DNA of 64,000 nt. Source: Chthonomonadales bacterium. Lineage in GTDB: Bacteria > Armatimonadota > Chthonomonadetes > Chthonomonadales > CAJBBX01. Shown piece after piece: positions 3,250 to 5,838 of the stretch. The translations under genes were made by a program, and so were the position numbers. The notes beneath the pieces are model-generated. The model had not been told where the DNA came from, did not search any database, and saw nothing but the letters and a program-made list of their open reading frames with translations. The first letter of the stretch is position 1, and each line of letters starts with the position of its first letter. The stretch lies in assembly GCA_038229495.1 (NCBI GenBank), contig JBBROJ010000004.1, forward strand, positions 9,320-73,319. The letters are read 5' to 3'.

Positions 3250-5838
3250 CTACTTCTTCTTGCTCTTATCCAGCAGCGCGAGCTTGAAGACCTCATCAAC
3301 CTGGCTTACATGCTTGAATGTGAGGTTTTCGCGGACGTTGTCGGGCACGTCCTCCAGGTCTTTGCGATTCTCTTCCGGCAGAATCACAGTCTTGATTCCG
3401 GCGCGGTGCGCGGCAAGCACCTTCTCCTTCACGCCGCCGATGGGCAGCACACGCCCGCGGAGCGTGATCTCGCCGGTCATGGCGACGTCTTTGCGAATGG
3501 GCCGCTTGGTCAGCGCGCTCGCAATTGCCGTAGCGATGGTGATTCCCGCGGAGGGTCCGTCCTTCGGGATCGCGCCCGCCGGCACGTGAACGTGGACCTC
3601 CAGCCCCTTGTAAAACTCCTCGTCCAGGCCCAGCTCTTTCGCGCGGGAGCGGATATAGGTCATGGCCGCCTGCGCCGATTCTTTCATCACGTCGCCCAAC
3701 TGGCCCGTGAGTGTCAGCTTGCCGTCCTGCCCTCGCACCAGGCTCACTTCCACGGTCACGATGTCGCCGCCGAACTCGGTGTAGACCAGGCCGGTCGCTG
3801 CTGCGATCTCGTCCTGTTCCTCCATGAGGCCGTAGTGGTAGCGCCGCTGGCCCAGGTAATGCGGCACGTCGTCTGCGTCAATAGTCGTCGGCTCCGCTCT
3901 TCCCGCAGCCACCTCGCGCGCTACTTTGCGGCAGAGCGTGCCGATCTCGCGCTCAAGATTCCGAACGCCCGCCTCTCGCGTGTACTCGCGAATCAAGAGA
4001 CGCACCGCATTCGTGGTTATCGTCAGGAGCGGTTGGAGTTTGTTGGGCCGATTGGTCGCTGGGTCGTTGGGCAACGGGACGCCCGTGGGATCTTCCACCT
4101 TGCGGGAGCGCCGGCCCTTTCCCTTCTTCCCGTCTTCCCCTACTTCCTTCTCCTTCCGCACCAGCCCATGGTCCTTGACCTGCTTCGGCACGAGGAACTG
4201 CTCCGCGATCGCCAACTTCTCCTCTTCGGTATAGCCGGCAAAGGAGATGACCTCCATGCGATCCCGAAGCGCCGAAGGAATAGGGTCCAGGATGTTAGCG
4301 GTTGTGATGAACATAACGTTGCGGAGGTTGAAAGGAACCTCCATATAGTGATCGCTGAATTCGCCGTTCTGCTCGGGGTCCAGCGCCTCCAGTAGCGCAG
4401 CCGAGGGATCGCCGCGGAAGTCCATGCCGAGCTTGTCGATCTCGTCCAACATGAAGACCGGGTTGTTCGCTCCGGCCTGCTTGATTCCCTGTAGAATCCG
4501 GCCCGGCAGCGCGCCGATGTAGGTGCGGCGGTGGCCCCGAATCTCGGCCTCGTCGCGCACGCCCCCCAGCGAGATTCGGATGAATTTTCGGTTCAGGGCG
4601 CGGGCGATGGACTTGCCCAGAGATGTCTTGCCAACGCCGGGCGGGCCCACAAAACAGAGAATCGGACCCTTCATGCCGCTGCCCACGAGCTGCCGCACGG
4701 CAAGAAACTCGAGAATCCGCTCCTTTACCTTCTTCAGGCCATAGTGGTCCTCGTTCAGCACCTGCTCCGCCTCGTCGATGTGGAGAGCTTCGGCTGTGGA
4801 TTTGCTCCAGGGAAGCGCGACCAGCCAGTCCAGATACGTCCGAATCACGGTCCCTTCAGGCGCTGCGTACGGCATTTTTTCGAGCCGCTCCACCTCCTTT
4901 ACCGCCCGCTCCTCGACAGCCTCGGGCATGGCGGCGGCTTTAATCTTTTCGCGGAACTCCTCGATCTCGCTGCCGCGCTCGTCCCGCTCCCCAAGCTCCT
5001 GCTGAATCGCCTTCATCTGCTCGCGCAAAATGAACTCGCGCTGCGTGTCGCCCATCTCCTTCTCGACGCGGCTGCGGATGTTCTTTTGAATCTCGAGAAT
5101 CTCCCACTCCTTCTTCAGGACGACGGAGAGCTTGTGGAGCCGCTTGCGAACGTCCTGGGTCTCGAGAATGTCCTGCTTCGTCTCTACGCGAAGCTGGTGC
5201 AGGTAGGGGGCAATCGTGTCGGAGAGCCGGCCTGCCTCCTCCGTATTGACCACGTTGATCAGGGCTTCCGGCGCGATGTTGCGGCCTACGTTGACGATTT
5301 GCTCAAACTGATTCGTAACGCCGCGCATCAGGGCCTCGATTTCGAGGTCCTTGTACTCCATCGTCGGCATCGGCTCGATAACGACCTTGTAGAACGGAGC
5401 GTCCTGAACGTACTTGACGATTCGGACTCGCTCGACCCCTTCCAGCATCACGCGGACCGTGCCGTCCGGAACGCGCAGGTGCTGCATAATCTCCGCCGCA
5501 ATCCCAATCGTATAGAGGTCGTCCGCCTCAGGCTCCTCGGTGTTCACGGCCTTCTGGGCAACCAGCACGATATGGCGCTCATGGCGAATCGCTTCGTCCA
5601 GGGCACGAACCGACTTCTCCCGGCCAACCAGCAGCGGAAAGATCATGTGCGGGAAGTAGACCTGGTCTCGAATAGGCAGCAGGGGAAGTACGCGCGGGAT
5701 CGCAGCCGCGCCCCCGGTCTCTTCGCCCGCAGCCTCGAGCAGGGCGGCCTCAAGCTCTTCGCGGTCCTTTTTGCTTCGTCTTGTTCGAACGGGCTTTTCA
5801 GGCTCGGGCTGGTCTTTAGTGCGCGTTGCACGCGGCAT
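3250..5838 (-). CDS. lon: ATP-dependent Lon protease (LonA type)
   Basis: 862 aa. Lon N-domain, Walker [22 protein letters not shown], and protease domain [15 protein letters not shown] with the Ser-Lys dyad. Carries an extra segment of about 40 aa at nt 4030-4160. Confidence 0.97.

Follow-up and report, generated by a model that had tools for sequence, protein, structure and literature searches.

The gene for the Lon protease (lon) in a 64,000-nt stretch of DNA from a Chthonomonadales bacterium (contig JBBROJ010000004.1, 60% G+C; we call this whole stretch the window) carries an in-frame insert whose DNA is not ordinary coding sequence, being made of two decayed octanucleotide arrays separated by a short stretch of unique sequence. 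The units of both arrays are of the same families as those of the intergenic arrays here and in related genomes of the Chthonomonadales. We think it likely that the process which makes and turns over these intergenic arrays of 7- and 8-nt units also acts at the Lon site, where its products are filtered by selection. As modelled, the insert would be translated into an intrinsically disordered, net-basic surface loop in the lid (small alpha) subdomain of the AAA+ module. The gene and the parts of its insertion site are as follows, in window coordinates:

3250 to 5838, minus strand: lon, encoding a LonA protease of 862 amino acids (open reading frame and translation, Pfam domains, phmmer match to 6u5z)
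4162 to 4170, minus strand: HGL codons (amino acids 557-559), where the helix at 538-556 ends and the insertion site is anchored on its left
4027 to 4161, minus strand: linker plus insert (amino acids 560-604), net charge +5, predicted to be disordered (spacing counts, phmmer gap, charge, structure prediction)
4117 to 4154, minus strand: left array, a decayed purine-rich octamer, in sense ...GGAAGTAG GGGAAGAC GGGAAGAA GGGAAAGG..., encoding 12 amino acids and belonging to the family of the intergenic GGGAAGAA array at 46182-46217
4072 to 4116, minus strand: non-repetitive core, encoding 15 amino acids, where k-mer hits are sparse and at background level; the beginning can be aligned in part with that of the relative L082 (GRRAK)
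4040 to 4071, minus strand: right array, a decayed octamer of the CCAACGAC family, in sense CCCAACGA CCCAGCGA CCAATCGG CCCAACAA, encoding 10 amino acids
3961 to 4026, minus strand: conserved lid elements directly after the insert (strand 605-607, helix 609-619 and the sensor-2 arginine)

The named Lon sequences nearest to this one put the window in the order Chthonomonadales of the Armatimonadota. The gene lies downstream of tig-clpP-clpX, an arrangement common to its relatives, and its product has the full LonA domain set of N-terminal substrate-binding domain, AAA+ module with lid and S16 protease domain (Pfam LON_substr_bdg PF02190, AAA PF00004, Lon_lid PF22667 and Lon_C PF05362, all far above the cut-offs), along with the Walker A, sensor-2 and Ser-Lys protease motifs. 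A phmmer search of solved structures matches it to E. coli Lon (6u5z) with E = 9e-248. The distance from HGL to the conserved lid motif of the (I/V)R.YTREAGVR type is 56 residues. In GTDB, where our script located the motif in 64 of 80 lon loci from species-representative genomes, it is 15 residues in every locus except one with 16; the nearest of these loci, in a Chthonomonadales metagenome-assembled genome with a 73% identical Lon, also has the canonical spacing. Among the listed database homologues without an insert in which the motif was found, it is again 15 (93/93). The extra segment thus amounts to some 40-41 residues, and the 45 residues of linker plus insert stand where more than 150 LonA proteins have a linker of four (KKGE, in the lid subdomain of E. 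coli Lon). The match to 6u5z is split by phmmer into query residues 51-564 and 605-857 against chain residues 11-521 and 521-773, which leaves a clean 40-residue gap; chain residue 521 abuts both sides, and query residues 569-604 are covered by no matched solved Lon chain. Compared with canonical LonA (E. coli 6u5z, B. subtilis 3m6a, M. taiwanensis 4ypl), the window protein therefore matches very strongly on either side of a segment for which E. coli Lon has no residues. These counts and the phmmer gap bear out the first-pass annotation of the window, which had claimed an in-frame insertion of 56 versus about 15 residues and had placed it correctly, at 4030-4160. We regard the long spacing as a variant feature that gives no ground for taking the protein out of the LonA family. 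Inserts of this type will split or distort homology matches, as happened here when phmmer cut the window Lon in two.

The insert sits between the helix ending in ...KDHGL and the strand LTIT. An AlphaFold2 model built on a 50-sequence alignment (mean pLDDT, the predicted local distance difference test score, 73) predicts coil over residues 562-601, with a pLDDT below 50 at 567-597, and scores of about 90 for the flanks (helix 538-556; strand 605-607 and helix 609-619). The disordered loop suspected earlier is thus also what the model predicts, between confident AAA+ lid elements; judging from AAA+ rings in general, we presume that it faces outward in the hexamer. At the N terminus, the first 47 or so residues (amino acids 1-47, window 5698-5838) form a K/R-rich extension, the outline of which is common to the clade; it is modelled mostly with low confidence, pLDDT falling below 50 at 1-22 and 39-47, and residues 23-38 are predicted to be helical.

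Read on the coding strand, the insert consists of a decayed (GGGAAGAN)~4 array, a non-repetitive core of about 45 nt and a decayed (CCCAACGA)4 array, the first (left) array being purine-rich and the second (right) C/A-rich. Tandem Repeats Finder (TRF) reports both as weak arrays of period 8: TTCCCGTC x2.6 with 92% matches at 4119-4139, and GTTGGGTC x3.8 with 72% matches at 4042-4071. Such head-to-tail units are far clearer at this site in the relatives L081, L165, L167, L168 and L169. A tandem (CCAACGAC)n cycles through the three frames as PTTQRPND, and the peptide encoded by the right array is a diverged form of this cycle. Selection on amino-acid repeats could not produce a period of 7 or 8 nt, and we therefore take these to be DNA-level arrays that happen to be translated. 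The first-pass annotation had described the segment as a GGAAG-type array followed by an array of a second type; two period-8 arrays related to the intergenic ones do stand in that order, but the left one fits the octamer family GGGAAGAA better than the heptamer GGAAGAC, and the middle third is not repetitive.

Pattern scans, k-mer counts and blastn all connect the insert with the intergenic arrays. In the window, (CCAACGAC)4 with at most 5 mismatches is found at five sites only, namely four intergenic arrays and 4040-4071 on the minus strand (5 mismatches), while (GGGAAGAA)4 with at most 7 mismatches is confined to 46171-46225, 46233-46294 and, with 5 mismatches, 4117-4154 on the minus strand; neither pattern was matched in 30 simulated 64-kb sequences (second-order Markov). 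The comparison of nt 4030-4160 with the intergenic arrays that had been proposed as a check yielded 22 8-mers in common. Over 34,501 coding windows of 120 nt the mean is 1.7 (standard deviation (sd) 1.7) and the maximum elsewhere 12, which makes the insert a 12-sd outlier and the coding window that shares most k-mers with the arrays. Its top blastn-short matches inside the window are likewise all arrays; the left array matches 46191-46209 at 18/19 positions, and the right array has an exact 12-mer, GACCCAGCGACC, in common with lon's own upstream array at 5890. The runner-up k-mer windows near 15770 and 20100 proved on inspection to be ordinary sequence. A further match near 23000 falls in an intergenic spacer, the open reading frame at 22467-23678 (minus strand) being spurious; the real genes around it, on the plus strand, encode a GT4 glycosyltransferase and a polysaccharide deacetylase.

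Tandem arrays with units of 7 and 8 nt abound in the window, and nearly all are intergenic. Those with which the insert is best compared are:

5858 to 6036, minus strand: lon-leader cassette, in sense (GGAAGAC/GGAAGTC)x5, (CCAACGAC/CTAACGAT)x11, CCATTGAC, CCAGCGAC, (CCGAATAC CTGAACAC)x2, ATG
36630 to 36756, plus strand: fliI cassette, directly upstream of the gene, CGGAAGT x4.9, one CCAACGACC, then a CCCGAATACCTGAAC-type array
43600 to 43676, plus strand: cassette upstream of flgE, GAAGACG x3.6, GAAGGTA x2.6, CCAACGAC x4.5
46171 to 46225, plus strand: intergenic array of the octamer GGGAAGAA, which resembles the left half of the lon insert most closely

The corresponding genes are fliI at 36757-38097 (plus strand, followed by fliJ at 38308-38748, plus strand; both by Pfam) and flgE at 43783-45552. 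Upstream of lon, fliI and flgE, a purine-rich (GGAAG-type) array is followed on the same strand by one of the CAACGAC or CCAACGAC type. The first-pass annotation had recognised this same order in the insert, and the observation extends to two further loci, 38101-38292 and 54597-54733, with one exception, 23001-23063, where the order is reversed. The insert thus has the order of five of the six intergenic loci that hold both families, an order also found at a second Lon site in L167 (below). Within the lon leader, the 8-mers CCAACGAC, CTAACGAC, CCATTGAC, CCAGCGAC, CCGAATAC and CTGAACAC keep one continuous 8-nt phase over 5858-5993; the seemingly different array families of this leader are a single array whose units have diverged and re-expanded along its length.

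Whether the insertion is specific to this strain, a question raised with the original claim, is answered in the negative by alignment of the orthologues, which reveals a long-standing, clade-wide hot spot. Fifteen of the 24 closest Lon relatives carry an insert of 17-41 extra residues at exactly the same position; all 15 are in frame, free of stop codons and net positive (+1 to +7), and their sequence differs in every lineage. DNA was read for ten carrier loci, eleven with the window (L082 and its duplicates L083 and L084 being counted once), and arrays of 7- or 8-nt units lie inside the insert in six of the ten, that is, in seven of the eleven. An old linker present throughout the clade with DNA unrelated to the repeats, which the first-pass annotation had named as the outcome that would undo its proposal, is thus not what these seven loci contain. 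The six inserts with arrays, apart from that of the window, are:

L081 (Lon 87% identical): 9-nt AAGGCGNCT x5.8, then near-perfect CAACGACC x6.1 with 95% matches
L082: AGAGGGGA x4
L165: GACAAGGA x4.1 and CTCAACC x4
L167 (site 1): CAACGCC x4.1, 100% matches
L168: GGTATTCA x3.9, GGAGAGGG x3.6 and ACCCAACG x3.4
L169: CCAACGAC x3.2

Arrays of CCCAACGA are present in the inserts of both L168 and L169. The peptides QRPNDLTTQRPNDPTT in P0002, NDPTTQQP in P0011 and SDPTTQRP in P0012 can be understood in the same terms, because (CCAACGAC)n reads PTTQRPND in all frames in turn. In nucleotide alignments the left array is common to the window and L082, and the right array with its right junction to the window, L081, L168 and L169; the insert is therefore orthologous within this group and has been remodelled in place. 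The right arrays of L081, L168 and L169 are fresher than the orthologous copy of the window. The window copy represents the hot spot at an old stage, partly decayed and with adapted codons, since its arrays are decayed and its G+C content at third codon positions (GC3) is normal (0.77 versus 0.79 in the rest of lon), codon-position G+C giving no mark of foreign origin; fresher states are seen in the relatives. Arrays of period 7 or 8 are some 20-fold more frequent in the loci of this clade, at 3.6 per 10 kb, than in 160 other lon loci (0.17). A scan of metagenome contigs returned no closer Lon (none above 67% identity) and no additional carriers, and no length variants were seen among the members of the Lon clusters; the P0003 Lon is identical in contigs from three samples.

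Another repeat hot spot of Lon (site 2) lies where the lid gives way to the protease domain, with the lid helix CRKVAR..VA on one side and TIDADD on the other. Every relative other than L167 and P0010/L170 has the short form there (the window reads GGGAAGAGCGGAGCCGACGAC). L170 has CGACCCAA x4.2 (11899-11932), and L167 has a fresh cassette at 11893-11962, (GGGGAAAT)x3, CGAAGA and (CCCAACAA)2(CCCAACGA)2, the latter equivalent to (CCCAACRA)x4, which adds 20 residues. The same composite recurs in L167, as GGGGAAAC GAGGAAAT GGAAG followed by (CCCAACGA)x5.4, antisense at 5193-5262 in a gene at 4720-6309 (minus strand), where it is read as GSLGRWVVGSLGRWASISSF; the purine-rich flanks of the two copies are similar (P about 0.001 against random segments). 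This gene is real (GC3 0.80, 1,229 homologues) and encodes a conserved membrane protein without Pfam domains, the array sitting in a hypervariable loop between hydrophobic segments. The type IIG restriction-modification gene of L167 (12713-16819) contains (ACTCACG)x4.9 and then CAACGACCCAACGCC, in frame, at 14378-14427, and this array is a candidate phase-variable switch. Finally, an in-frame CTCAAC(A/G) heptamer array of 3-4 copies occupies the same position in FGGY kinase orthologues of two species (L082, 14509-14534, and L166, 6965-6984; SLNTQDSTLNT / SLSTQGSTLNT). A translated-repeat search with (PTTQRPND)x5 gave two short unannotated open reading frames only; such a search probably misses low-complexity matches of short length and has little to say on the frequency of in-frame arrays.

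Translation is open only to units that are stop-free in every frame, since an 8-nt unit runs through all three. By our own reading of the sequences, CCAACGAC, GGAAGAC and GGGAAGAA are stop-free in sense, while tandem CCCATTGA and CCCGAATACCTGAACA produce TGA, and in the lon of L168 CCCGAATACCTGAACA occurs only as its stop-free reverse complement GGTATTCAGGTATTCGGG. The stop-free orientation explains which units occur in genes. Tandem GGGAAGAA reads GKKGRREE, which like PTTQRPND is hydrophilic, and such sense products suit a surface loop; VVGSLGRW, the product in antisense, is found in the membrane protein. The uniform positive charge of the inserts suggests selection, although it may partly follow from which units are translatable.

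With respect to the origin of the insert, slipped-strand replication or unequal exchange would make and turn over arrays at the Lon site, probably assisted by copying from other arrays during repair, and selection would keep those products that are in frame, stop-free and hydrophilic in a tolerant loop. A founding step in which a multi-unit block was copied from an existing array is the more easily explained, because the first duplication of a single unit would shift the frame; later changes in unit number would have involved three units at a time, or two changes that compensate each other. That the CCAACGAC family and the L167 composite turn up again at unrelated genes is in keeping with copying; growth in situ agrees with purine-rich units that differ between lineages and with the seed-like strings of sites lacking an insert. 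Probably both occur. The first-pass annotation had proposed that repeat cassettes can land inside coding sequence and be tolerated as a disordered loop. Their tolerance is supported by the in-frame arrays of the orthologues, the absence of stops in all carriers and the predicted disorder. As to their landing, the repeats do sit in frame in genes, but at an old hot spot of the whole clade and not as a recent arrival in one strain.

Several points weigh against this account. The arrays of the window insert are weak (TRF scores of 32 and 35, 72-92% matches), one third of the insert is not repetitive and the case leans on the relatives; moreover, K/E/G/R codons alone would partly yield the purine-rich half. 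Blastn-short reveals no single cassette in the window that could have supplied both halves together with fitting junctions, nor a second full-length copy of the insert within these 64 kb, where only array parts match. The common order of the two array types is moderately significant, at roughly p = 0.02 by our own estimate (five of six loci, with 23001-23063 as the exception). L166, L170 at site 1, L171 and L172, mostly more distant carriers, have a basic loop with no detectable array (the L172 genome is 48% G+C and array-poor). In a neighbour-joining tree the carriers are interleaved with the non-carriers P0007 (the closest Lon free of an insert), P0013, P0017, P0027 and P0032, a pattern which fits either several gains or one gain with several exact losses and cannot separate the two. 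Both the translation and the disorder of the loop are predictions.

Of the alternatives, the one that survives best is that the loop was an older, lineage-specific basic linker of unrelated origin, perhaps for binding DNA, polyphosphate or a partner, and that arrays colonised it secondarily in array-rich genomes. This is possible, though we would not expect it. It would account for the K/R-rich, array-free inserts of the four lineages just named, for the normal codon-position G+C of the window insert, for the scatter of carriers over several Lon subclades and for the net positive charge of 15 out of 15 inserts, a charge that suggests selection because it has persisted while the sequence turned over completely. 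Yet arrays decay quickly, and array-free inserts may simply be old; a basic bias also follows from stop-free purine-rich units such as the one that reads GKKGRREE; and the clean, fresh cassette at site 2 of L167, where all relatives but P0010/L170 are free of inserts, indicates that cassettes can create an insert de novo.

Rather doubtful, in our opinion, is a second alternative, pure growth in situ by slippage from chance seeds and with no copying, any likeness to the cassettes then reflecting mutational and selective filters common to both. The purine-rich units are indeed specific to lineages (GACAAGGA, AGAGGGGA, GGGGAAAT, AAGGCGGCT), seed-like strings exist at the uninserted site 2 (GGGGCGAAAT in L166; GGGAAGAG...CCGACGAC in the window), and intergenic arrays at orthologous positions are wholly different between species. 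However, the frame shift caused by a first 7- or 8-nt duplication would make birth from a single unit hard, the CCAACGAC family recurs at independent sites, genes and genomes, and the L167 composite occurs with similar junctions in two unrelated genes. Unlikely is the idea that an active process of writing or copying repeats, specific for a unit length of 7-8 nt, deposits two-part cassettes (a purine-rich part, then CCAACGAC) anywhere, essential genes included, and that the basic Lon loop has been co-opted, e.g. for nucleic-acid or polyphosphate binding; array-copying break repair is one possibility for such a process and a dedicated enzyme another. If it exists, it would create new disordered, charged protein segments out of spacer-type DNA.

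It is very improbable that a discrete mobile element, such as a miniature inverted-repeat transposable element (MITE) or one of the Rickettsia palindromic element (RPE) type, was transposed in frame into lon. RPEs are a precedent for in-frame repeat insertions in housekeeping genes (PMC10969869), and the internal order of the cassette does recur. The insert nevertheless lacks terminal inverted repeats, flanking direct repeats and a palindromic or structured RNA: a search of 3950-4250 for terminal inverted repeats or a target-site duplication returned no family of direct repeats, the one palindrome there being a GC palindrome of 9 nt, and the insert has no excess RNA structure (fold z = +0.48 against shuffles). 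Nor is there an element consensus or a pair of conserved ends, length and units varying in every orthologue. An intein or an intron was likewise rejected, the segment being 40 amino acids long with no intein/Hint match in Pfam and no intron match in Rfam.

Equally remote is a phase-variable lon, toggled by slippage of repeat units. Contingency repeats are perfect, lie near the 5' end and toggle the reading frame. The Lon insert resembles such loci in having non-triplet tandem repeats within coding sequence; L081 has six near-perfect 8-nt units in lon, and the L167 restriction-modification gene has (ACTCACG)x4.9. The arrays of the window, in contrast, are decayed, too degenerate and short for frequent slippage, and lie mid-gene in the lid loop of an ATPase; every lon recovered is in frame, and so are the orthologues throughout, with P0003 unchanged between samples. 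By its arrays and by the lon genes recovered, the Lon insert of the window does not look like a contingency locus. As for a mere coincidence of composition, in which an ordinary low-complexity K/E/G/R plus P/N/T linker happens to resemble the repeats, the purine-rich codons of Lys, Glu, Gly and Arg and the short, degenerate arrays of the window would allow it, but we dismiss it as next to impossible and count it as refuted by the near-perfect 7/8-nt arrays at this site in orthologues, the k-mer sharing, the period of 8 rather than 3 nt and patterns that are absent from simulations and otherwise confined to arrays.

Both in-frame repeat elements and simple sequence repeats (SSRs) with 7-8-nt units are already known, and the Lon insert is a variant of both. 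RPEs are repeated DNA of non-coding type that lies in frame in conserved housekeeping genes and adds a peptide segment compatible with the fold (PMC10969869). The Lon insert is like these and other intragenic MITEs in being repeat DNA in frame in a housekeeping gene, but an RPE is a discrete palindromic element, about 150 bp long, that follows the consensus of its family, whereas the insert consists of short 7-8-nt tandem arrays with no inverted repeats, ends or consensus, remodelled in each lineage. Long-unit SSRs include the short tandemly repeated repetitive (STRR) heptamers of cyanobacteria, the GGGAATC / GGGGA(C/T)T repeats of Xanthomonas and Nostoc, and TAACTGA in Beggiatoaceae; they form abundant head-to-tail arrays of about 7-nt units, mostly intergenic and often with several different arrays next to one another close to gene starts, which differ even among close relatives, and polymerase slippage has been proposed as their cause (PMC4679880, PMC4692102). 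The intergenic arrays of the window fit this description. Heptamer SSRs are, however, essentially intergenic and under-represented on coding strands, non-triplet units being expected to be excluded from genes (PMC4679880, PMC4692102), whereas in this clade 7/8-nt arrays are read through as protein, as two-part cassettes, in Lon and in other genes. In the literature that we searched, we found no description of 7/8-nt arrays in Armatimonadota.

Non-triplet repeats, which one would expect to be excluded from genes or to switch the frame, are here read through in a core quality-control protease, at a site that has been repeatedly rebuilt in relatives. The relatives provide a datable series, from fresh array through decayed array to ordinary-looking basic linker, in which spacer-type DNA can be followed as it becomes bacterial protein. 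Since the coding copies, unlike the intergenic arrays, are constrained and can be aligned, they are the best place to study the origin and tempo of the dense 7/8-nt arrays of this sparsely studied phylum.

Some minor observations concern the leaders and spacers. In the lon leader, on the sense (minus) strand at 6073-6155, a promoter-like box (GGAACTTTCGGGTATACC...TATAAAGGGTAC) is followed by a strong hairpin (GAAGCAAGAG-N10-CTCTTGCTTC with a U-rich tail); both are conserved in L082, L165 and L166 (in L170 the hairpin alone was seen), with all of the surrounding arrays different, and they may serve as an operator or attenuator, or as the terminator of clpX. At 38117-38202 and 54660-54718 there are tandem copies (x3 and x2, respectively) of a 29-nt unit that contains a palindrome (GCCCCCCGGCCCCCAATTCTGGGGGAGAT and its reverse-complement family), in both cases embedded between GGAAG-type and CCAACGAC-type arrays. 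Arrays are paired with their own reverse complements at 32028-32102, 32983-33077 and 46171-46294, where long hairpins built of repeats would form; a short way before fliF (33097), for example, GGAAGAC x5 is followed by GGCTTCC x5. The GGAAG-type arrays also place many GGA motifs in the leaders of fliF, fliI and flgE (32983-33021, 36630-36663 and 43600-43640), and to see in them sites for a CsrA-like regulator would be pure speculation. Coding repeats of a different, triplet-compatible kind occur in an 832-amino-acid open reading frame at 40231-42729 (plus strand), with long in-frame repeats of 9 nt (x14-15) and of 18/36/54 nt at 40687-40830 and 41175-41340. The only Rfam match in the window is a tRNA gene at 14293-14365 on the minus strand.

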